From: Deltaproteobacteria bacterium | Lineage (GTDB): Bacteria; Desulfobacterota; Binatia; UBA1149; SPBQ01 | Length of the DNA: 64,000 nt | NCBI GenBank assembly: GCA_029262375.1 | Contig: JAJCZM010000046.1 | Location: forward strand, 1,367-65,366 | Direction: 5' to 3' | Translations under genes and position numbers: made by a program | In this document: one piece after another, positions 46,030 to 63,110 of the stretch | How positions within the stretch are numbered: the first letter of the stretch is position 1 | How the letters are laid out: every line of letters starts with the position of its first letter | Notes under the pieces: model-generated | The model's database searches: none | What the model was told of the DNA's origin: nothing | The model's input: only the letters and a program-made list of their open reading frames with translations

Positions 46030-47367
46030 ATGAGTTACGAACCGGAAACGCGGTACGCCAAAAACGGCGACGTCTACATTGCTTATCAGGTGATCGGCGA
46101 CGGCCCGATCGACCTCGTCGTCGCCACCGGCTTCACACATCACATCGAGCTGACCTGGGAGAATCCGGCGTCAGCGGCGTTCTTCCAACGATTCGCATCG
46201 TTCGCACGCGTCATCATGTTCGACAAGCGCGGCACCGGCCTATCCGACCGCGTGCCGAACAACGAACTGCCTGATCTGGAACAGCGCATGGACGACGTGC
46301 GCGCCGTGATGGATTCAGCCGGTTCCGAGCGCGCGGCCCTTCTCGCCTTCTGGGAAGGAGGACCCATGTGCGCGCTGTTCGCGGCGACCTACCCGCAACG
46401 CACGAGCTCTCTCATGCTCTACGCGACGCCCGTGGCTTTCACTCCCAGCGACGACTACCCGTGGGCGAACAATCCGGAGACCTACGAGGCCTTCATCGAG
46501 GCATTGGGCGACCGCTGGGGCCGCGGCGAGATCTACAGCATGCTCGCACCGTCGTGGGCCGACGATCCGGTCGCCCAACGGTGGCTCGGGCGCCTCGAGC
46601 GCATGGGTGCCAGCCCCGGCGCCGTGATGGCGCTATGGCGTATGAACTCCGAATTGGACGTAAGGCATCTGCTGAGCGCGATTCGTGTCCCGACACTCGT
46701 GATGCATCGTCGCGACGATCCAATGCTCGACATCAATGCCTCGCGATACATCGCAGAGCGCATTCCGGGCGCCAAGATGGTCGAGCTCGAAGGGCGTGAT
46801 CACCTACCGTGGGTCGGCGACTCAGACGCGATCTCGCGCGAGGTGCAAGCGTTCGTCACCGGCGCCCGCGCGGAGACCTTCGTGGACCGCGTACTCGCGA
46901 CCGTGCTGTTCGTCGATATCGTCGGCTCAACGCAGCAGGCCGCCGAGATGGGCGACGCCGCATGGCGGTCACGGCTCGACGGATTCTATGACGGGATGCG
47001 ACGGACACTCGAGCGCTACCGAGGGATCGAGGTCAACACGACCGGCGACGGATTCCTCGCACGCTTCGACGGACCCGCGCGCGCGATACGCTGCGCCGAA
47101 GAAATCAGTTCGCAGAGCGCGCAAATGGGACTCCGTGTTCGCGCTGGGCTGCATACTGGCGAATGCGAACTGCGCGGCGACGACCTCGGTGGACTGGCCG
47201 TGCACATCGGCGCACGAGTCGCCGACCACGCCGACGGCGGCGAAGTCTTGGTTTCGAGTACCGTGAAAGACTTAGTCGCCGGGTCCGGAATTGAATTCAC
47301 CGACCGCGGCGAGCACACACTAAAAGGCGTGCCGGATAGCTGGCGGCTGCACTGCGTCGCGGCCTAG
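46030..47367 (+). CDS. Alpha/beta hydrolase fused to a class III adenylate/guanylate cyclase domain
   Basis: The N-terminal part has MFDKRGTGLSD. The C-terminal part has VLFVDIVGSTQ...TTGDGFLARFDGPARAIRCA...GLHTGECE...GLAVHIGARV...LKGV. Confidence 0.85.
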   Translation: MSYEPETRYAKNGDVYIAYQVIGDGPIDLVVATGFTHHIELTWENPASAAFFQRFASFARVIMFDKRGTGLSDRVPNNELPDLEQRMDDVRAVMDSAGSERAALLAFWEGGPMCALFAATYPQRTSSLMLYATPVAFTPSDDYPWANNPETYEAFIEALGDRWGRGEIYSMLAPSWADDPVAQRWLGRLERMGASPGAVMALWRMNSELDVRHLLSAIRVPTLVMHRRDDPMLDINASRYIAERIPGAKMVELEGRDHLPWVGDSDAISREVQAFVTGARAETFVDRVLATVLFVDIVGSTQQAAEMGDAAWRSRLDGFYDGMRRTLERYRGIEVNTTGDGFLARFDGPARAIRCAEEISSQSAQMGLRVRAGLHTGECELRGDDLGGLAVHIGARVADHADGGEVLVSSTVKDLVAGSGIEFTDRGEHTLKGVPDSWRLHCVAA

Positions 47368-48650: not shown

Positions 48651-48670
48651 GTCGGCCTTAGTCGGCCTTA
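48651..48670. repeat. 10-bp tandem repeat gtcggcctta x2 (plus a diverged third copy) spanning the stop codon
   Basis: The minus strand reads ...AAGGGTGAC TAA GGCCGAC TAA GGCCGAC TAG. Confidence 0.85.
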
Positions 48671-50440
48671 GTCACCCTTGGCCTTGAACTGGGCCGGATC
48701 GTTCTTCGACGGAGAAGACATCGGCACTTCGAAGCACAGGGTGCCGCCGTCGTCGATGATGAACTGGGCGGTCACCGTCGGCGTCAGTGGCAGCCCCGGC
48801 GCCGCAAAGTTCAGACCCTTCATCTTCACTTGGATCTGAGACTTGCCGGCCGTTCCTTCTTTGAATTTCACTTGTTGGATTCCATCAGGAGTGCCGGTCT
48901 TGTCTTTGTGCTTGAAGCCCTTCGTCCCTGCGGCCTTCCAGCAAGGCTTCGTCCCGCAGGTTCCGCCCGGCAACACGCCGGCTTCGAGAAGGGGCTGCGG
49001 AGTCGCCGAGGTGTCCCACACACACAGACGGTAGTCGGCCGTGCCGCCGACCGGATCGGCGAACTCGAGCAACGTCGTCGCGTCGCCCTTGTTGTACTTG
49101 AACTTGAGTTGGTTCTTCGACGGATCGCTCGCCTTGAGCTTGATCTGCATCTGCGACTTGCCCGACACGGCGGTACGACAGCCGACGATCGGAGCAGGAC
49201 CACATAGAACCGGCAAGGTCGTGGTCGTCGTGGTGGTGGTTGTAGTGGTCGTCGTCGATGTCGTGGTCGGAGGAGGAGCGATGGCGCCGGTCAGATCGGC
49301 CGCCGCCATATCGTCGGAGGCTCCCGTAATCGGGTTGGGGCCGCAGAACCGGCCCGACCACAGACCGATATCATCTTGTGCGACGACGATGCAGGGGATG
49401 CCGGGGGCACCGAAAGGACCGCCCTCCGTGAGCAGATCACCTTCTTGAATCGGCAGCCCGGCGCAGTCGAAGGCGCCGATCGCGAAGGAAAAAGGTGATA
49501 CCGAGTAGAGGATCATGTCCGCGGGCGGCGCGTAGGCACCGTCGCCGGCGACGTCGAGTACGATGAGCGCGTCCACGTCGTCAGCAGGAGCGCCCAGGCC
49601 GAGCGCGGGACCAGGCGCGTACAGACCGAAGCCGCCTCCGAAGGCAACGAAGATGTCCGACGGCAACGCGCCGAGGGCCGCAGCAGTCGGAGGATCGACG
49701 GAGAAGTAGACCGGAACGTCCGGCAGGGTATCTCCCGTGGGATCCCAAGCGCCGATCGGTGCGGCATCAAAGGCATCAACGGCATCGATGAACGGACCCG
49801 GCTCGATCAGGGGGATTGCCGGCGCGGTCGGCAATCCGAACGGGATCGACGGGAGGCCGTTGCCGTCGAAGCCCTGATAGTTCGGGCTTGCACCCGGTGT
49901 GATGGCACCCGGAACCAGCCACGCAGTGCCGTTCGGTGCGGTAATGAATACGTCGGAAGCGGCCTCACTCGATCCGCCGCCGAAGAGGTCGGCAGATTCG
50001 GCGCCCACGTCGGTCACCGTGAAAGGACCTGGGGTACCCGGAGCGCAGGCGCCCAAGGGATCGCCGGTCACGAGATCACCCACGCCGAAGAGCAGCGAGG
50101 TCGTCCCTGCCGGATACGGAAACGCGACACCCACGAGCGGACTCAGTCCGCTCGAGAATGCGTTGACGTTGTAAGGACCGCCGGTGGCCGGCCAACCCAG
50201 CCCGCAGCCGGGAGGACCCATCGGGACGCTGTAAGGCGTCCCCGGACCGAAGATGTCTCCGTCGATCGAGAAGCCGGCACCAAAGCACGGCGGGCCCGCG
50301 GGCGGCGGCGGCGGCGGCGTGGCGCCGGTAAAGGAATTAGACATCGACTGCGCGAGAACACGATTAACACTCACGGAAAACATCACTGCGATGGCAGTGA
50401 GGCAGGCGAGCAGTAGGCGGACATTGCGGTTTGATTGCAT
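48668..50440 (-). CDS. Secreted Gly/Pro-rich protein with poly-Thr linker and the shared FKAKGD C-terminal domain
   Basis: Signal peptide MQSNRNVRLLLACLTAIAVMFSVSVNRVLA, linker TTTSTTTTTTTTTTTTT, and a C-terminal ~179 aa homologous to the C-terminus of 56117-57856. A GGGGG SD precedes ATG 50440. Confidence 0.75.
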   Translation of the reverse strand: MQSNRNVRLLLACLTAIAVMFSVSVNRVLAQSMSNSFTGATPPPPPPAGPPCFGAGFSIDGDIFGPGTPYSVPMGPPGCGLGWPATGGPYNVNAFSSGLSPLVGVAFPYPAGTTSLLFGVGDLVTGDPLGACAPGTPGPFTVTDVGAESADLFGGGSSEAASDVFITAPNGTAWLVPGAITPGASPNYQGFDGNGLPSIPFGLPTAPAIPLIEPGPFIDAVDAFDAAPIGAWDPTGDTLPDVPVYFSVDPPTAAALGALPSDIFVAFGGGFGLYAPGPALGLGAPADDVDALIVLDVAGDGAYAPPADMILYSVSPFSFAIGAFDCAGLPIQEGDLLTEGGPFGAPGIPCIVVAQDDIGLWSGRFCGPNPITGASDDMAAADLTGAIAPPPTTTSTTTTTTTTTTTTTLPVLCGPAPIVGCRTAVSGKSQMQIKLKASDPSKNQLKFKYNKGDATTLLEFADPVGGTADYRLCVWDTSATPQPLLEAGVLPGGTCGTKPCWKAAGTKGFKHKDKTGTPDGIQQVKFKEGTAGKSQIQVKMKGLNFAAPGLPLTPTVTAQFIIDDGGTLCFEVPMSSPSKNDPAQFKAKGD

Positions 50441-50709
50441 GGTAGTTACCCCCGAAACGGTTGTCGGCCGTGCGCCCGGCACACGGCGAGTTCAGGTTGT
50501 TCAAAGTTGCGCCCTGAAGGAAGGCGAAGACATGGAACGGGCCCGCCGTGACAGGCGATCCGCCCGCAAGGCGGAGGTTTCACGGACTGATCACCTGTCA
50601 CAGCGAAGCTCATGTCACGTGGTACGCGAGAGCGGCGACGTCGGATGAGAAAAAGTGTCAGATCGGCGGCGATTCGGGCGAATCGTTCAAAATGCGGGGA
50701 ATTCGGCCC

Positions 50710-53727: not shown

Positions 53728-55908
53728 TTAGATCTGCTCCTCGTAGAGCATGGTCGTGGAAGTCGTGGGTGGCTCGACGATCGTGGTTGACGTACTCGTC
53801 GATGTCGTTGTGGACGTGCTCGATGTCTCGCACGTCCCCATCTCGATGACGATGTCGTCGATAGCACCCGAGCCGAACAGGCTCACGATCATCGACCAAA
53901 CGCCCTCGACGCGGTCGAACTCGACGACGGTAACGCCGTTGTTGCCGACCTGCGGCAACGCGACCGAGCTGAGCAACTCGCCCTCGGCGCCGTACAGTTC
54001 GACGACCGCCGGATCTTCGGTGGTCTCGACGTCGAGCAGCCTGAGCGACTTGACGACAACCGGCCCGATGGCCGTGAAGTCGAGATGCGTTGCTACCGGG
54101 CGTGCGTTGCCCTGGTCAGACGGATTGTCGACCAAGCCGTCGGCCGGAGCGACGTCGATCAGGTTGTGGGCGACGATCAGAATGTTGCCCTGCGCGACCG
54201 AGTTCTCGAACTCGGCGCCGGCTTCACCGCCGACACCGATGCCGGGGCCGTCGAACGTCTCGTTCGGTGTACCGAGATCGTCGTCGCCACCGCTGCAGCT
54301 CCCTGACGAACATGCGCTGTCGTAGATCACTGCAGCATTGTCGCCGGGAAGACGCTCGATGTTGTCACCGTACACGCCGACCGGGCCCATGCCGCCATCA
54401 CAGTAGACTTCCGAAAGGATCGTGCCTTCAGCGTGCCCCTCGAAGCTGATGACATCGACCGAGCCAGCGGCCATGCCGTCGTAGGCACAAGCATCGACTT
54501 CCTCATCGCACCGATCTTGCGTGCACTCGTCGTCGTCGGAGCAAGCGGGCGCCTCACCGGCGCTGCAGCCCAGCTCGGCGTCGCAGCGTTCCTCGCCGTT
54601 GCAGAACTGGCCGTCGTCGCAGACAAGCGCCTCGCCCGCCAAGCAGCCGAGCTCGGCGTCGCAGGTCTCTTCACCATTGCAGACGTCGTTGTCGCTACAC
54701 GCGACCGGGCCGTAGGTGCAGCCTTGGTCTTGGGAGCACGAATCAACTGTACAGGCATCGCCGTCATTGCAGTCCATAGCCGCGTGGGCGCACCCCTCGA
54801 GCGCATCGCAGCTATCGACGGTGCAGTTGTCCTCGTCGTCGCAAACGAGCGCAGCGCCGGCCATGCAGCCCGCAGCCGCGTCACACGACTCGTCGCCGTT
54901 GCAGACGTCGCCATCGTTGCAGACCAGAGGCTCGCCTTCGACACAGCCCGACTCCGGGTCGCAGCTCTCCATACCGTTGCAGACGTCGCCGTCATCGCAG
55001 CTGATGGGCTCGTTAAGGCAACCGCCCTCGGCCGAACAGCTATCCATGGTACAAGCGTTGCCGTCGTCGCACTCGACGGCGCTGTGGCTGCAGCCCTCGA
55101 CGGGATCACAGCTATCGACCGTGCAGTCGTCGAGATCCTCGCAGGGCGCGGCGTCGCCGTCGATACAGCCGAGCTCGGCATCACAGTCTTCGACGCCGTT
55201 ACACACATCGCCGTCGTCGCAGACGAGCGCTTCGCCTTCGACGCAACCGGCGCTCGGATCGCAGGTCTCAGTACCGTTGCAGGTGTTGCCGTCGTCGCAG
55301 ACGATCGGCTCGTTGCTGCAACCGTCGGAGTCGTCGCAGAGATCGTCGGTACAGGCGTTGCCGTCATCGCAATCGCGCGGAGCGGCTTCGACACAACCGG
55401 ACGTCGCATCGCAGGTCTCTTCGCCGTTACAGACGTTTTGGTCGTCGCACTGCAGTGCTTCGCCTTCCATGCAGCCCGACTGCGGATCGCAGGTCTCGGC
55501 GCCGTTGCACACGTCGCCGTCGTCGCACATCACGGCGTCGCTCATGCATTCGCCGGGACACAAGATGTTCGACTGCAAGCCGATGGCGCCGGCCATGACG
55601 CGCAACGCGTCCGTGGCACAGACCACGCCGTTCGAGTCGACGTCGCAAACCGCGGGGCGGCAGGAACTCGATAGGCCGGTGCCAAAACGCAGTATATGCA
55701 GCGCGTCGCTGGCCGTCAGAGCGCCGGACTCATTCGGATCACCGCACATGCCGTCGGCAATGAAGCAGGTATCGGTCGTGCAAGCATTGTCGTCGTTACA
55801 GTCGACGGCGGTGTCACAGGGGATGAAGGTTGGCTGGGCCCACGCGGGCGTCGCCATGAACAAGGTCAGCGCGGCCGCGGCGACATAGCGTAATACTGGG
55901 TAATTCAT
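53728..55908 (-). CDS. Secreted protein with ~15 four-Cys repeats (CDDGxxCNGxExCDxxxGC / CDDGNACTxDxCxxxxGC), an embedded dockerin-like module, an unassigned C-terminal domain and a Ser/Thr tail
   Basis: Signal peptide MNYPVLRYVAAAALTLFMATPAWA. Dockerin-like CGDPNESGALTASDALHILRFGTG...CDVDSNGVVCATDALRVMAGAIG. The repeat units were counted by eye. Confidence 0.8.
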   Translation of the reverse strand: MNYPVLRYVAAAALTLFMATPAWAQPTFIPCDTAVDCNDDNACTTDTCFIADGMCGDPNESGALTASDALHILRFGTGLSSSCRPAVCDVDSNGVVCATDALRVMAGAIGLQSNILCPGECMSDAVMCDDGDVCNGAETCDPQSGCMEGEALQCDDQNVCNGEETCDATSGCVEAAPRDCDDGNACTDDLCDDSDGCSNEPIVCDDGNTCNGTETCDPSAGCVEGEALVCDDGDVCNGVEDCDAELGCIDGDAAPCEDLDDCTVDSCDPVEGCSHSAVECDDGNACTMDSCSAEGGCLNEPISCDDGDVCNGMESCDPESGCVEGEPLVCNDGDVCNGDESCDAAAGCMAGAALVCDDEDNCTVDSCDALEGCAHAAMDCNDGDACTVDSCSQDQGCTYGPVACSDNDVCNGEETCDAELGCLAGEALVCDDGQFCNGEERCDAELGCSAGEAPACSDDDECTQDRCDEEVDACAYDGMAAGSVDVISFEGHAEGTILSEVYCDGGMGPVGVYGDNIERLPGDNAAVIYDSACSSGSCSGGDDDLGTPNETFDGPGIGVGGEAGAEFENSVAQGNILIVAHNLIDVAPADGLVDNPSDQGNARPVATHLDFTAIGPVVVKSLRLLDVETTEDPAVVELYGAEGELLSSVALPQVGNNGVTVVEFDRVEGVWSMIVSLFGSGAIDDIVIEMGTCETSSTSTTTSTSTSTTIVEPPTTSTTMLYEEQI

Positions 55909-56023
55909 ACTGGGTTCACTTCTCCTAAGGGCGTTCGTGGGAGCGTTCGTGAACCCGACAGTGGCGCTCGATCGAGCGCTTAGCACGCTCAGGTGAGGCG
56001 GCGTTTATAGGCTGATATATCAT

Positions 56024-56116: not shown

Positions 56117-57856
56117 TCAGTCGCTCTTGGCCTTGAACGACTCGCCTTCGTTCTTCCTCACGCCGACCCCGGAGAACGACGCCGACCAGCAGATTCCCGA
56201 ATCCGAATGCAGTTGAACCTCCACCGGAAGCGCCGTTGGAAGCGGCGGGAGCACCGGCAGCGTGAGCGCTTTGCCATCGGCTTTGAGCTTGAGCTTCGCC
56301 TTGGCATCGATGCCCACACCGAGTCTGAGCTGCGAGACCCCGTGCGGCGTCAGCAGCTTGTCCTTATATAGATAGCCCTTCGCGCCGGGCGGATTGCCTT
56401 TCGCGCGCCAGCAATCCTTCGAATTCGCACAGATGTCTCCGGCCGGGATTTCGGCTTCGAACACAATCGCAGGCGCGCCCGAGGTATCGAACACGCACAG
56501 CCTCAACGAATCGCTCACTGTGGGATCGCCGTAATCGGCGGCATCGGTCTGCTCGCCCACCCATCTGAAATCCAAGCGATCGAGCGTGTCGGGACTGCGA
56601 TCTCTGAACGAGAACTGTGCCTTGCCGGAAGCGAGGGGCTCTCTGCAATCGGCGCGCGGCACGACGATACCGGTGCACTCGCCCGCCCCATCGCACTCGC
56701 CTACGGCGCAAAGACTGCCTTCGAGCGCGCACGAGGTAGCGGCCGCCTCGACCGTGCAGTCGGCGGCGCAGCAATCGCCGTTGGTTCGATTGCCGTCGTC
56801 GCATTGCTCGCCGCAATCGAGTCGGCCATTGCCGCAGCCGAGCCACAGCGCCATCGCGTTGCCCTCCGCCTGGAAGTTCTCGGCCGGATCGTTCCACGGA
56901 TCGGCACCCTTATCGCCAAGCCAGCCATACGGATCGATCACGTTGGCAGCACTGGATTCCGGACTGCCCGCGGGCGGATGCCGCCGTACCTCGAAGTGCA
57001 GATGCGGCGCGAACGTGCCGAAGTTCCCGACGGTACCGACCTGCTGGCCGGCAACCACCGGCGCGCATTGCCCGACGAGTAGATCGGTCAGCGGGTTGCC
57101 GCCTGTATCGGTCCCCGCGAGATCGGCGGCGTGCAGGTACCACGACGCGTAGCCGTGATCTCCCACCACGCCATGGTCGATGTAGAACGTATGAAACTTC
57201 TCCCACCCGCTCGACGCACCGAAGTGACCGTTGATGGGGTCCTCCTGTGCCTTGCAGAGACTGCCGTCGGCGGTGGCCACGAGCGGCGTCCCCGCCTGGT
57301 AGCGATAGTCGTAGCCGGCGTGGCTCGCGTAACTGAGCACGCTCGGATTCGACAGCGCACCTTCGTAGTTCCCGTTGACCACGTACGAGGAGCCGTCGGC
57401 GCTGTAGTAGCCGCAGATGCACAGCGTGTTGAGAAAACACGCCGGGAAGTCGGGCTCCGCCGGGCACAGTTCATTGACGACACCGCGCTCGGCACTCTCG
57501 CCCGTGTAGGCCGTGATCTGCGTATCGCAGCAGCGTTGGTAGAACGGCCCGGTGTGATCCATCACCGAGATCATCGGCGCCGAGTACGCGTCTTGGCCGA
57601 GCCAGTCGACCGGAAACGCTGGAAGAATAAAGCCGTCGCCGCAAACACCCGAGTGGCATTGTTCCGGACCGGTACAAGGATCGGCGTCGTCGCAATCGTC
57701 GTTCGTCACGCAGGCCGGGCCGGCGTATGCCGGCGGCGCCCACAGCGCGGCCGGCTGAAGAACAGCCAACGCAAGGGCACCAACGACGGCGAGCATCTGC
57801 GCGACCTGCGCGCCCCGCACGATCCACGCTCTCCTTTTCAGGCTGGTCGGCCGCAT
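56117..57856 (-). CDS. Secreted M23 (LytM-type) metallopeptidase with Cys-rich N-terminal region, one Myxococcus-type Cys-rich repeat and the shared FKAKSD C-terminal domain
   Basis: HxxxD as SHAGYDY and HxH as APHLHFEV. Cys-rich repeat CGNGRLDCGEQCDDGNRTNGDCCAADC. The C-terminal ~177 aa are homologous to 48671-49207. The ATG is at 57856; the track used TTG 57859. Confidence 0.8.
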   Translation of the reverse strand: MRPTSLKRRAWIVRGAQVAQMLAVVGALALAVLQPAALWAPPAYAGPACVTNDDCDDADPCTGPEQCHSGVCGDGFILPAFPVDWLGQDAYSAPMISVMDHTGPFYQRCCDTQITAYTGESAERGVVNELCPAEPDFPACFLNTLCICGYYSADGSSYVVNGNYEGALSNPSVLSYASHAGYDYRYQAGTPLVATADGSLCKAQEDPINGHFGASSGWEKFHTFYIDHGVVGDHGYASWYLHAADLAGTDTGGNPLTDLLVGQCAPVVAGQQVGTVGNFGTFAPHLHFEVRRHPPAGSPESSAANVIDPYGWLGDKGADPWNDPAENFQAEGNAMALWLGCGNGRLDCGEQCDDGNRTNGDCCAADCTVEAAATSCALEGSLCAVGECDGAGECTGIVVPRADCREPLASGKAQFSFRDRSPDTLDRLDFRWVGEQTDAADYGDPTVSDSLRLCVFDTSGAPAIVFEAEIPAGDICANSKDCWRAKGNPPGAKGYLYKDKLLTPHGVSQLRLGVGIDAKAKLKLKADGKALTLPVLPPLPTALPVEVQLHSDSGICWSASFSGVGVRKNEGESFKAKSD

Positions 57857-57984
57857 CAAGTCGAGAGTGAATCGCCGAGGCAGTCTAAGTCAAGATGGGA
57901 TCGTGCCTTGCGAATCCCGACGGCGCCTCACATGGTGGCGCGAACGCGGACCCAAGCGGGCCAACCGAGGCGCGACGAGACGAA

Positions 57985-60020: not shown

Positions 60021-62639
60021 TTAGTCGACCGGCGCGAGACAAGCCATGGCGCTGCACACATCTACAACCGCACCGCCCGTCTTCAGGAACTCCGATTTCT
60101 GCGTGCGCGCTGCCGGCTGGCGTCGCGGGCACTCGTGCGGATCGGAACCATGGTTCATCGCACACAGCTGAAGATCGGCCCATTCGGGATCGGCAGGAAC
60201 AATCGTGCTCGGCTCGATGTTACCGATCGGAGGCGCCGGGTTGCCGCTGTCATAGATGACGAGCGCAGAGCCGTCATACGGGTACGACGTGATCGGCGGG
60301 ATGTCGTAGTACGGAGTCACCTCGGGCACGACCTTGCCGACCGACAGCGTCGGCGTATGAATCAGCGCGCCCGTCGAGCGGGCCGCGATCTCTGCCGTCA
60401 CCGGCGCGACCTGATGATCGCCGAACGCCACTTGGGAGAGCAGCTTCTTCGCCGGCGTGCCGGGGTACGGATCCGCAGTCACGTGATTGATGTGCCCGCT
60501 CGGATCGGTGCGGTCCCACAGGATCTGCGCGGTGGCAAACAGCACGCTGCGATCGAGCGAGCTCGGATAGGCATTGGCAAGCGTCACACCGAACGCGCTG
60601 AAATCAACGCTTCGGTTGAGCAGCGTGCTGTAGTTGATGCCGGGTACGCCGAGCACGAACCGCTCGATGTCTTGAGAGATGGCAGCCAACACACCGCCGA
60701 GGATGCCTCCTTGGCTGTTACCGTCATAGAAGAGTTCGCTCGGATCGATGACCGACTGACCGCCGACCTGGAACGCCGGGTCGCTGGCGAAACCGGAGAG
60801 GTGCGTCATCAAACGACCGAGAAATTGGAAATTGAGGACGCCCTGGTGCTGCCGATCGATGAACGCCGGGAACGCCGAGAAGTTATTGAGAATACCGAGC
60901 ACAACCAACGTGTCTTCGTTGGCGAAGCCCGTCCAATCCGTGCCGCACATCACGAAGTTGTGCTCGCTCGAGAAATCGCGAACGTGACTGGAACTGGTCT
61001 GGCCGCCCGTACCCAGCAGACCGTGACCGTACAGTGACGGACGCGCGGGAACCGCGGGTGCGAAGCCGCCGGTCGTCGCGGCGTAAGGGATGATGCAGCG
61101 ATAGGTCGCGGTGAAGAAGTCCCCCGTGTTAAACGGCACCTGATCATCGTCCACGCGCAACGTCGATCCCGGAACACCGCCGAGGGTCATATAGAGAGGC
61201 ACCTGATAGGTCCCCTCGACCATACGGAAGATGTTGGCGTCGAGCGGTTCGGTGATCGTGTCTACGGTGAAGGCCGGCGCCGCTGCGCCCAAGATGTTGT
61301 CGAAAGCGTCGTCGCGCATCGCCAGGTGGCGACTCGACGTGCTCTCGTCGCTCTGCGTGGTGAAATCCCAAGCCAGGTAGAGATCGCCGCGCGTGATGCC
61401 GAAGCCTTCGAGCGTCGTGAAGAGCTCTTCCATATGCGCACGGTGCGCTTCGACCGGCACGAGACCGGTGGGAGTATTGTCGCGATAGGCCGCAAACGTG
61501 GGGCTCGATGCCAACGTCACACCGCCGGCGTCTTTCACGCCGCGCATCGCAACGATGTAACGACGACCGTTGATGAGATTCTTGCCGACTCGACCAATGA
61601 GTGCCTGATCGGCGGCCGTCGCGCCGCGCTGATCACGTTCCATCCAGATCAGCTGCTGATCGCCGGTAAGCGCATCGACCAGCACGACCGGAGCGCTCGG
61701 AACGAGCGAAGCCGCCAGGTCGGTGATCGGAGTTGCGCCCGTCATGGCCAGATCGACGTCTTCGTTCGCGGTCAGTAGCATCGGGCCGATGCTGAAGCCG
61801 TCGGCAAGATTCCATTGATCGGGAAGGACCGGATCGCCCGAATCGTTGGCCGGTAGCGCGCCCGGTCCGAAGTTGAGTCGACGACCGCTCGGCGTACTCG
61901 TATCGGGAAGGCTGAAGTAATCGTTGGGGAACGGGAAGAGGCAGCGCGTGTCGTCGGTGGGATCGCAGATCGAAGCAACCGACGACGGGATTTGATCGAC
62001 GGCGGCATCGGCGAACGCCGCGTCGCTGTAACCGGTGAGCGCTGAGAGATCCACACAGAGCTTGCCCAGCTTGGCAGTGGCCTTGGCGGCGAGCTTGGCG
62101 ATGTCGGCCTGCACGTCAACCGTGTCGCATGCGGCGCCGCCGCATTTGCCGAGCAGCTTGGCCCCCTTGCTGATGGTCTTGCCGGCTTCTTTGCCCGCCT
62201 TCTGCAGGCACTTCTTGCCGTCGGCATCGGCAGCCGTGTAGTTCGAGCCATCGGGAGCGAACGTGCGCTTGACGGCTGCAAGGGCATGCCGTTCGCAGAC
62301 ATCGTTCATGTGGTCGCTCAACTCGGTGGGCGTCAGCGGGCCGTAACCGGCCGCGGCAATCGTGGGCTCGTCGAAGCAAGCCTTTTCAATCTTCTTCTTG
62401 GATGCCGCGTAGGTCGCCGGAATTTTCGGATCGAAGATGCACGCCGCGTCGGTCTTCTTGTAGCATTTCACGTGAGTCCCGACGATTTTCTTCACGCACG
62501 ACGACGACGACTTCGCGATGGTCTGTCCGCATTTTACGTCGGGTGTGGTGGCGGCGTATGTCGCCGGCGCAGCGAGCGCGAGAGAAAGGCCCATGCCAAG
62601 CGCGAGCGAGAAGGAGAGCTTGAATCCATAGTGCGACAT
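60021..62639 (-). CDS. Large secreted putative serine hydrolase (alpha/beta fold) with Lys/Cys-rich helical N-terminal region
   Basis: Signal peptide MSHYGFKLSFSLALGMGLSLALAAPATYA. KC..I.K/KKC..K spacing occurs in the first ~200 aa. Nucleophile elbow FYDGNSQGGILGG. Candidate acid/His AFGDHQV. Start trimmed to ATG 62639. Confidence 0.6.
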   Translation of the reverse strand: MSHYGFKLSFSLALGMGLSLALAAPATYAATTPDVKCGQTIAKSSSSCVKKIVGTHVKCYKKTDAACIFDPKIPATYAASKKKIEKACFDEPTIAAAGYGPLTPTELSDHMNDVCERHALAAVKRTFAPDGSNYTAADADGKKCLQKAGKEAGKTISKGAKLLGKCGGAACDTVDVQADIAKLAAKATAKLGKLCVDLSALTGYSDAAFADAAVDQIPSSVASICDPTDDTRCLFPFPNDYFSLPDTSTPSGRRLNFGPGALPANDSGDPVLPDQWNLADGFSIGPMLLTANEDVDLAMTGATPITDLAASLVPSAPVVLVDALTGDQQLIWMERDQRGATAADQALIGRVGKNLINGRRYIVAMRGVKDAGGVTLASSPTFAAYRDNTPTGLVPVEAHRAHMEELFTTLEGFGITRGDLYLAWDFTTQSDESTSSRHLAMRDDAFDNILGAAAPAFTVDTITEPLDANIFRMVEGTYQVPLYMTLGGVPGSTLRVDDDQVPFNTGDFFTATYRCIIPYAATTGGFAPAVPARPSLYGHGLLGTGGQTSSSHVRDFSSEHNFVMCGTDWTGFANEDTLVVLGILNNFSAFPAFIDRQHQGVLNFQFLGRLMTHLSGFASDPAFQVGGQSVIDPSELFYDGNSQGGILGGVLAAISQDIERFVLGVPGINYSTLLNRSVDFSAFGVTLANAYPSSLDRSVLFATAQILWDRTDPSGHINHVTADPYPGTPAKKLLSQVAFGDHQVAPVTAEIAARSTGALIHTPTLSVGKVVPEVTPYYDIPPITSYPYDGSALVIYDSGNPAPPIGNIEPSTIVPADPEWADLQLCAMNHGSDPHECPRRQPAARTQKSEFLKTGGAVVDVCSAMACLAPVD

Positions 62640-62652
62640 GTCGATACCCCTT

Positions 62653-62685
62653 TGATCTGAAAATGATCTGAGAATGATCTGAAAA
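62653..62685 (-). promoter_or_regulatory. 11-bp direct repeat x3 in the leader of gene 60021-62639
   Basis: tgatctgaaaa tgatctgagaa tgatctgaaaa. This is an AT-rich patch ending 13 nt from the start codon. On the mRNA strand it reads TTTTCAGATCA x3 followed by AAGGGG. Confidence 0.5.
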
Positions 62686-63110
62686 CGTGTACCCGCGCAC
62701 AGGTGCGCCGGTTGGTCATCGAATATAGACCGGGAACCGCGCCGTTGCCCAGCCCTTTCCGTGCAGCCGATCCGGCTGTCCAGCCCAGAACGGACGAGTT
62801 GCGCAGCCGTGACGGCGAAAACGAGAGTGAGCCCCCCCGGGAGGGTGAACCGCGGGTCGAGGGAACGACCCAACATGCCCCGCACGGTCATCGCTCAGAT
62901 GCACCTTCATGACCTGGAACCGGGGGGTCGACCAGCCGCGCCATCGCACGCCGGCCGAGACACCGCGCTCGGCAACCTGACCGACTCGCTCGTTCCAGTT
63001 CCTGCACGCCCTCGCTTGTCCGCCTCGTGGACCGCGATATAGCTGGCTCTAAGCGTGTATTGCCAGGCCCGAATTGCCGGGCGGGCCGGCGCGCACGCCC
63101 CGGAGAGACC

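Follow-up and report, generated by a model that had tools for sequence, protein, structure and literature searches.

Two exported proteins with a common C-terminal domain

The stretch of DNA analysed here, referred to below as the window, comprises 64,000 nucleotides of contig JAJCZM010000046.1 from a Deltaproteobacteria bacterium that GTDB places in the Binatia (assembly GCA_029262375.1). Its minus strand carries two genes, designated here A and B, which encode exported proteins with a common C-terminal domain (CTD). An earlier note, made from the sequence alone, had proposed such a domain at 48671-49207 and 56120-56650; a BLASTP comparison of the two proteins confirmed it (E 2e-18), and residue mapping reproduced the coordinates exactly.

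The longest open reading frame (ORF) of gene A, taken from the ORF list, spans 48668..50482 (minus strand, 604 amino acids, aa) and begins at a GTG at position 50482. Because the orthologue P0050 aligns only from residue 16, and given the position of the signal peptide, the true start is probably the ATG at 50440, which would yield a protein of 590 aa (MQSNRNVR...). From this codon, a signal-peptide-like N-terminus read directly from the sequence (50351..50440, minus; MQSNRNVRLLLACLTAIAVMFSVSVNRVLA followed by Q) leads into a Gly/Pro-rich cargo region (49277..50350, minus), to which neither Pfam nor NCBIfam assigns a family. A Pro/Thr linker, PPPTTTSTTTTTTTTTTTTT, located by residue-to-coordinate mapping at 49217..49276 (minus), then connects the cargo to CTD copy A (48671-49207, minus; 179 aa). 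This copy has six conserved cysteines and a net charge of +8 with an isoelectric point (pI) of 9.2, and it ends in QFKAKGD immediately before the stop codon.

Gene B (56117..57859, minus; 580 aa) was identified from the ORF list, Pfam and NCBIfam as an exported M23 metallopeptidase with the same CTD. Its signal-peptide-like N-terminus, likewise read from the sequence, occupies 57722..57859 (minus; …KRRAWIVRGAQVAQMLAVVGALALAVLQPAALWAPPAYA followed by G), and the Peptidase_M23 catalytic domain (PF01551) covers residues 179-294 at 56978..57325 (minus), with E 7.9e-10 and 39.2 bits against a cutoff of 28.7 bits. A cysteine-rich spacer follows at 56651..56836 (minus), composed of a TIGR02232 ‘myxo_disulf_rpt’ or DUF4215-type repeat (residues 342-372; NCBIfam, E 9.4e-8) and a second Cys-rich stretch (residues 373-403) that runs straight into CTD copy B (56120-56650, minus; 177 aa). 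Copy B also has six conserved cysteines and ends in SFKAKSD before the stop codon; its net charge is -1 and its pI 6.2. Repeats of the TIGR02232 type stand upstream of the CTD in many other family members. The upstream regions of both proteins are thus as the earlier note had described them, Gly/Pro-rich with a poly-Thr linker in A and an M23 peptidase in B.

BLASTP gave a single significant alignment between the two proteins, joining residues 431-604 of A to residues 401-580 of B over 185 aa with 32% identity and 49% positives, and reaching the last residue of both; outside the CTD it detected no significant similarity. The motifs quoted in the earlier note are present, namely SGK(S/A)Q, RLCV(W/F)DTS, CW(K/R)A, KG(F/Y).(H/Y)KDK, TP.G and the terminal FKAKGD or FKAKSD. 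When either C-terminus was searched by tblastn against the whole 64-kb window, two copies only were recovered (E 2e-17 and 7e-22), less than 8 kb apart, with all else at E > 1. Both copies were also found with a hidden Markov model (HMM) of the family described below, at 5e-73 and 2e-58. On these sequence comparisons, the C-termini of the gene A and gene B proteins are homologous.

A large family absent from annotation resources

A word-indexed search with copy A yielded 18 relatives, and the profile made from them was searched against 1.84 billion representative proteins. It matched 7,970 of these at E ≤ 1e-3, 6,764 at E ≤ 1e-10 and 3,440 at E ≤ 1e-30. No Pfam or NCBIfam model covers the CTD in either window protein at E ≤ 1, and the domain went equally unmatched in 74 family members scanned with Pfam and 68 scanned with NCBIfam. 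Searches of PDB sequences by phmmer and by profile gave noise only, and in the literature on Binatia/Binatota C-terminal domains, secretion systems and DUF4215 we found no description of it. The CTD family is large and is undescribed in the annotation resources searched.

One genome per GTDB species was scanned for the exact peptide GTCGTKPC, which samples a sub-family only, and 32 loci were confirmed. About ten are in Candidatus Binatia metagenome-assembled genomes (MAGs) and about ten in MAGs labelled ‘uncultured delta proteobacterium’; the remainder include Polyangiaceae MAGs, one Thermodesulfobacteriota MAG and a few isolated matches to short contigs from other phyla. The family occurs mainly in Candidatus Binatia and in ‘deltaproteobacterial’ or Polyangiaceae-type MAGs.

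Several copies may be present in one genome. In one MAG, four copies form a tandem array and a fifth is found elsewhere (L014, L015, L016), and further copies lie in the flanks of L027, L029, L033 and L036. The array (L014/L015; CAVWBS010000003.1, ~375.5-392.4 kb) consists of four tandem paralogues of ~1,230-1,500 aa, each with the CTD at its end and with a variant terminus, ...QFGDKTD. A Binatia MAG (L017) carries orthologues of the array genes, as does another contig (L016) of the MAG that contains the array.

Comparison of the window with orthologous contexts revealed no conserved neighbouring machinery around the CTD genes, as would be expected for a self-sufficient binding module. In one such context (L033/L034, 337-9771; ena:ERZ27248688:k141_457788 and jgi:3300032138 Ga0315338_1000359), a gene A orthologue with 68% identity directly follows a 581-aa CTD gene and lies ~400 bp from a cluster resembling those of the type II secretion system (T2SS) or type IV pilus (T4P), with T2SSF, T2SSE plus MshEN, an N_methyl pseudopilin and several unassigned small genes. 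We considered this cluster as linked secretion machinery and judged the linkage incidental, since neither the window nor two other orthologous contexts have the cluster.

Predicted fold and conserved features

AlphaFold models were obtained for copy A from a 17-sequence alignment (predicted local distance difference test score, pLDDT, 93.5; predicted template modelling score, pTM, 0.90; 13 strands) and for copy B from a 68-sequence alignment (pLDDT 94.0; pTM 0.89). The two independent models are all-beta; each contains 12-13 strands and a single short helix. The beta-rich fold that had been anticipated is therefore what both models give, but without a close solved counterpart: Foldseek searches of the two models against PDB and of one against BFVD returned nothing at E ≤ 1e-3, and the best PDB alignments had E 0.016 and 0.045 with template modelling (TM) scores ≤ 0.42. 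The fold, as modelled, is probably new. Alignments to Ig-like, archaellin and GH2-sandwich structures (TM ≤ 0.42) were dismissed as generic beta-sandwich resemblance.

All six cysteines are kept in 186 of the 189 full-length copies in the alignment. One sequence only has lost two of them, and these are Cys4 and Cys5 of the C-G-T-K-P-C loop; because they disappear together, the alignment suggests three disulfides with the pairing 1-2, 4-5 and 3-6. Near-invariance extends to W.W, Y..C.YD, G.C....CW, several G and P, and Q, CW, N and F. An apparent GKSQ.Q.K repeat hinted at an internal duplication, which was ruled out by hhalign of the two halves (probability 1.9%).

The domain and its cargo differ markedly in charge. 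The CTD has a median pI of 9.0 and a mean net charge of +5.6, 88% of copies being positive, and copy A follows this pattern. The cargo upstream has a median pI of 4.2 and about -6.5 charges per 100 residues.

Position and cargo across the family

A local HMM was used to place the CTD in 200 proteins, comprising 166 database proteins, 32 genomic loci and the two window proteins. In 190 of these, no more than 12 residues separate the end of the domain from the C-terminus, and in 162 of 193 copies (84%) the protein ends at the identical profile column. The consensus end is Q-F-K-[A/D]-K-[G/S/A]-[D/P] followed by the stop codon, with D as the last residue in 64% and P in 27%. The earlier view of a module at the extreme C-terminus of different exported cargos is borne out by these counts and by the diversity of extracellular-type cargo set out below.

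The rule has exceptions, and the expectation that the domain is never internal failed. In P0084, P0102 and P0117 the CTD is internal and is followed by Thr/Pro linkers and further Cys-containing domains. P0043 carries it N-terminally, in the order signal peptide, short linker, CTD, long TP linker and Lcl_C. Two copies are present in each of P0019, P0021 and P0035, with DUF4215 or disintegrin-like repeats between them, and P0086 consists of a signal peptide and a CTD with nothing else. These internal, N-terminal, tandem and stand-alone copies are genuine and are not gene-calling artefacts.

The region immediately before the CTD, assessed in 183 cases, is a T/P/S-rich linker in 59, cysteine-rich repeats in 68 and of other kinds in 56. 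The cargos of the members scanned with Pfam are highly varied and all of extracellular type. Recurrent among these 74 members are DUF4215 repeats (10), 7-bladed lactonase propellers (7), DUF5122 (4), CBM96 (4), SGL (4) and Dicty_CTDC (4); a subtilase, a peptidase M43, a phospholipase-C-type phosphoesterase, a lysyl oxidase, GH114, a cadherin-like domain, Laminin_G_3 and a virginiamycin-B-lyase-like protein were each seen once. Among 174 proteins, a crude hydrophobicity heuristic scored 97-119 as starting with a signal-peptide-like segment; metagenomic fragments make up many of the others.

Alternative endings on a homologous peptidase cargo

The gene A cargo region has 8 homologues only, all of ~600 aa, and the five examined (P0050, P0169 and P0173, with P0050 and P0167 in an alignment) carry the CTD; with so few homologues, this cargo was uninformative. 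The M23 region of gene B is more informative, with 71 homologues; in the close ones, at 43-62% identity, the C-termini that follow the conserved M23 and Cys-repeat region fall into several classes. The CTD is present in P0194, P0202, P0205 and P0206 and, as a partial copy, in P0210, P0211 and P0214. Its place is taken by a PEP-CTERM-like tail, consisting of PEP, 15-20 hydrophobic residues and an Arg cluster, in P0190, P0195, P0199, P0201, P0203 and P0208, and by other tails with a hydrophobic helix and basic residues in P0175, P0177, P0179, P0192, P0209, P0212 and P0216. P0176 ends in a true dockerin (PF00404, E 1.7e-7, 31.8 bits), and P0189 and P0197 have dockerin- or EF-hand-like tails.

Among the remaining homologues, P0178, P0180, P0183, P0186 and P0200 end in TSP3-type repeats, P0174, P0182, P0185 and P0187 have very short ends, and P0181, P0188, P0191, P0196, P0198 and P0207 end in an unassigned Cys domain of ~100 aa with a DWRND motif. 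In this last module the motif extends to DWRND...PRDCR, with a TSP3-like DADGDGE..D.CP segment upstream, and Pfam gave no match for P0188, the member scanned.

In a neighbour-joining tree of the M23 catalytic region, calculated without bootstrap, the CTD members occupy at least four separate positions among the other classes, which implies that the C-terminal module has been swapped repeatedly. The NCBI ‘choice-of-anchor’ family names rest on the same logic of alternation. Since the CTD alternates with established surface-anchoring devices on orthologous cargo, it is likely to be a localisation device itself.

Proposed function of the C-terminal domain

We tentatively propose that the CTD is an autonomous, extracytoplasmic, disulfide-stabilised all-beta module of ~175-180 aa that tethers exported cargo non-covalently to a component of the envelope or matrix, a reading that is the likeliest of those weighed here but that we do not hold firmly. 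In this model, the proteins would leave the cytoplasm by the Sec pathway, as their signal-peptide-like N-termini suggest, and the CTD would fold in the oxidising periplasm or outside the cell, as the six invariant cysteines suggest. Attached through Thr/Pro-rich linkers or cysteine-rich repeats, it would form the end of many unrelated cargo proteins and, being usually basic, might bind a probably anionic component of the cell envelope or extracellular matrix, where the usually very acidic cargo would be kept. The domain would then work in the manner of a dockerin, a surface-layer homology (SLH) domain or another surface-retention module, and not as a sorting peptide that is cleaved off.

The case for anchoring or localisation is made by the breadth of cargo, the position statistics, the several copies per genome and, above all, the exchange of the CTD with PEP-CTERM-like tails and a dockerin in one slot. 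Dockerin (PF00404) and SLH domains are similarly modular, linker-attached and mostly C-terminal on varied secreted proteins, occasionally internal or duplicated, and in P0176, a close homologue of the M23 cargo, a true dockerin takes the place of the CTD. The resemblance does not extend to sequence or fold. Type I dockerins comprise two Ca-binding loop-helix repeats of ~22 residues within ~60-70 aa, whereas the CTD is far larger, has no Ca-binding EF-hand-like repeats, gives no PF00404 match and has no known cohesin-like partner. The CTD resembles dockerin, SLH and type IX secretion system (T9SS) C-terminal modules in use, not in sequence or fold.

A cleaved sorting signal is unlikely. The earlier note had suggested a sorting, anchoring or secretion role on the analogy of the T9SS CTD, PEP-CTERM and LPXTG; the anchoring or localisation part of that suggestion has direct comparative support in the slot shared with PEP-CTERM-like tails and dockerin, and the cleaved C-terminal signal is not supported. 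PEP-CTERM, MYXO-CTERM and LPXTG signals share with the CTD a broad range of cargo, and PEP-CTERM-like tails stand in its position in at least six M23 homologues. They are, however, motifs of ~25-35 aa with a hydrophobic helix and a basic cluster, whereas the CTD is a globular domain of 178 aa ending in FKAKxD. The window copies end in ...PSKNDPAQFKAKGD and ...RKNEGESFKAKSD, without a hydrophobic stretch or a basic tail; neither PF07589 nor TIGR03901 matched the window CTD proteins, and a regex scan found no tail of the PEP-CTERM, MYXO-CTERM or LPXTG type in window ORFs of at least 150 aa. Internal, N-terminal, tandem and cargo-less copies, the size of the domain, its three disulfides and the lack of conserved machinery all weaken the idea of a recognised-and-cleaved signal. 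Because of the exceptions in position, the missing PEP-CTERM and LPXTG features and a size twice that of the T9SS CTD, the evidence fits a modular binding or anchor domain better.

Several points weigh against a tether. That the CTD binds something, what its ligand is and where the proteins finally reside are matters that we infer from the patterns above. The position statistics represent the 150 best-scoring representatives and 50 others, not the whole family. A conserved end and exact termination in 84% of copies are not needed by a pure binding module and would also fit recognition of a free C-terminus by a sorting machine. The PEP-CTERM assignments follow the visible tripartite motif, their HMM scores being sub-threshold (PF07589, 13.5 bits against a cutoff of 20.7; NCBIfam PEP families, E ~0.1), and some of the alternative M23 endings, such as the TSP3 repeats and the Cys domain, are not established anchors. 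Finally, copy B in the window is not basic, unlike 88% of copies, and the electrostatic argument therefore fails for some members.

Among the alternatives, we regard it as unlikely that the CTD is a substrate-targeting module akin to a carbohydrate-binding module (CBM) or lectin, which would direct the protein to an external polymer (prey cell wall, plant or algal polysaccharide, or matrix) and not anchor it to the producer cell. Like CBMs, lectin-type beta-sandwiches and PPC domains, the CTD is a beta-rich accessory domain that is attached to secreted enzymes by Thr/Pro linkers and varies in position in a minority of cases; its fold, size and linker-attached architecture are typical of CBMs, for which internal and tandem copies are also common. 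Some of the cargos are hydrolases (M23, subtilase, GH114, a Pel9A-like beta-helix and phospholipase C), and anionic polysaccharides or cell walls would be fitting ligands for a basic domain. The cargo, most of it not carbohydrate-active, is nevertheless far wider than one substrate class, extending beyond carbohydrate-active enzymes and proteases to non-enzymatic propellers, cadherin-like and Cys-repeat proteins, lysyl oxidase and lactonases. Pfam, NCBIfam and Foldseek against PDB gave no match of the CTD to a characterised lectin or CBM family, and in this respect the idea of an anchoring domain came through. On the M23 cargo, moreover, the endings found in place of the CTD include PEP-CTERM-like tails and a dockerin, devices that anchor proteins to the producer cell and do not bind substrates.

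It is also improbable, to a similar degree, that the CTD is a dedicated secretion or sorting tag of the T9SS kind, which an outer-membrane machine would read in moving the cargo to the surface or into the medium; the machine might then cleave off the CTD or attach the cargo. The T9SS CTD (Por_Secre_tail, PF18962/TIGR04183) is likewise a folded beta-domain at the extreme C-terminus of unrelated Sec-exported cargos, with several per genome and a conserved last strand, and the positional conservation of our domain, the conserved terminal motif with D or P as last residue, the unrelated cargos, the multiple copies per genome and the slot shared with PEP-CTERM-like signals on homologous M23 peptidases are all in keeping with such a tag. 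So is the gene A orthologue that adjoins a second CTD gene and the T2SS/T4P-like cluster (T2SSE, T2SSF, N_methyl), but this adjacency is missing in the window and in two other orthologous contexts, and no candidate machinery emerged. The differences from the T9SS CTD are considerable. That domain has ~70-100 aa and 7 strands, whereas the present one has 177-179 aa, 12-13 strands and three conserved disulfides, and at ~178 aa is far larger than known sorting tags. T9SS CTDs are not known to occur internally, N-terminally, in tandem or without cargo, as some copies genuinely do here (P0043, P0084, P0102, P0117; P0019, P0021, P0035; P0086). The present domain is matched by none of the sorting-domain models of Pfam or NCBIfam, PF18962 and TIGR04183 included, and Ig-like chains align to it only at TM 0.25-0.38 and E > 0.01. 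The hosts are Binatia-like or deltaproteobacterial MAGs, not Bacteroidota, and no T9SS core genes (PorK/L/M/N, Sov, PorU/V) were present among the window neighbours examined, whole genomes not having been scanned. A sorting tag stays alive as an explanation because 84% of copies end exactly at ...QFK[A/D]Kx[D/P]-COOH.

A more specific version, which we hold to be more doubtful still, is that Binatia-like diderms possess a surface-display or secretion system not recognised before, for which the folded CTD of 178 residues serves as the tag and is read by a dedicated envelope machine through ...QFK[AD]Kx[DP]-COOH. Such a tag, of a new fold, would be a functional counterpart of the T9SS CTD or of PEP-CTERM/exosortase and would account for its exchange with those signals on one and the same type of cargo.

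A folding or stability extension without targeting function (an intramolecular chaperone, pro-domain or inhibitor, by analogy with PPC domains) would suit a compact, disulfide-rich domain at the C-terminus of secreted M23, S8 and M43 proteases, but is very improbable, with cargos that are mostly not peptidases, stand-alone and tandem copies, long, flexible linkers that speak against close association with the cargo, and no match of the CTD to PPC (PF04151) or any other model. The C-terminal barrels of autotransporters and other outer-membrane proteins, which have ~250-300 aa, a beta-signal with an aromatic last residue and usually no cysteines, differ from a domain of 178 aa with six invariant cysteines and a last residue of D or P, and no barrel structures were among the Foldseek matches of the CTD models.

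If the CTD is indeed a non-covalent tether for exported cargo, its novelty would lie in an undescribed domain family, probably with a new fold, that performs a familiar job, the C-terminal localisation of exported proteins. This novelty is tempered, in that accessory beta-domains are common on secreted proteins. A large domain family, of ~8,000 clusters at 50% identity, would nonetheless stand unnamed in current annotation resources, and the CTD would mark a considerable share of the proteins exported by an uncultured and environmentally widespread lineage, the Binatia and their relatives. With a family model, thousands of proteins now called ‘hypothetical’ would at once be recognised as surface-associated cargo outside the cytoplasm, and phylogenetic profiling for a receptor or sorting machine would become possible. 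The exchange of CTD, PEP-CTERM-like tails and dockerin within one M23 lineage would constitute a natural experiment on how surface-localisation devices replace one another.

Other features of the window

The neighbours of genes A and B are metabolic genes, including NMO, SnoaL-like, DoxX, amidohydrolase, glycosyltransferase and aldolase genes, and the GC content is 60-66%. Both the GC and the gene content of the window are in keeping with the group of genomes in which the family occurs. Scans for tRNA genes and for Rfam families at the gathering threshold found none in the whole 64-kb window.

Between the two genes, at 53728-55986 (minus), lies the gene for an exported protein of 752 aa. Six Dicty_CTDC cysteine repeats (E 1.8e-23) are recognised in it, and its residues 82-131 resemble a dockerin below threshold (E 8e-4; 20 bits, with the cutoff at 22.9). 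The protein terminates in ...TSSTSTTTSTSTSTTIVEPPTTSTTMLYEEQI followed by the stop codon, just past a Ser/Thr linker like those that precede CTDs and with no terminal domain after it; it may have lost a C-terminal module. A 956-aa ORF at 60021-62891 (minus), without a Pfam match and without a CTD, contains a signal-peptide-like stretch (MSHYGFKLSFSLALGMGLSLALAAPATYA) after an internal Met, together with an N-terminal region rich in Lys and Cys, and it probably encodes another exported protein. On the plus strand, at 46030-47367, an alpha/beta-hydrolase fold (PF00561, E 4e-16) is fused to an adenylate/guanylate cyclase catalytic domain (PF00211, E 1.8e-12).

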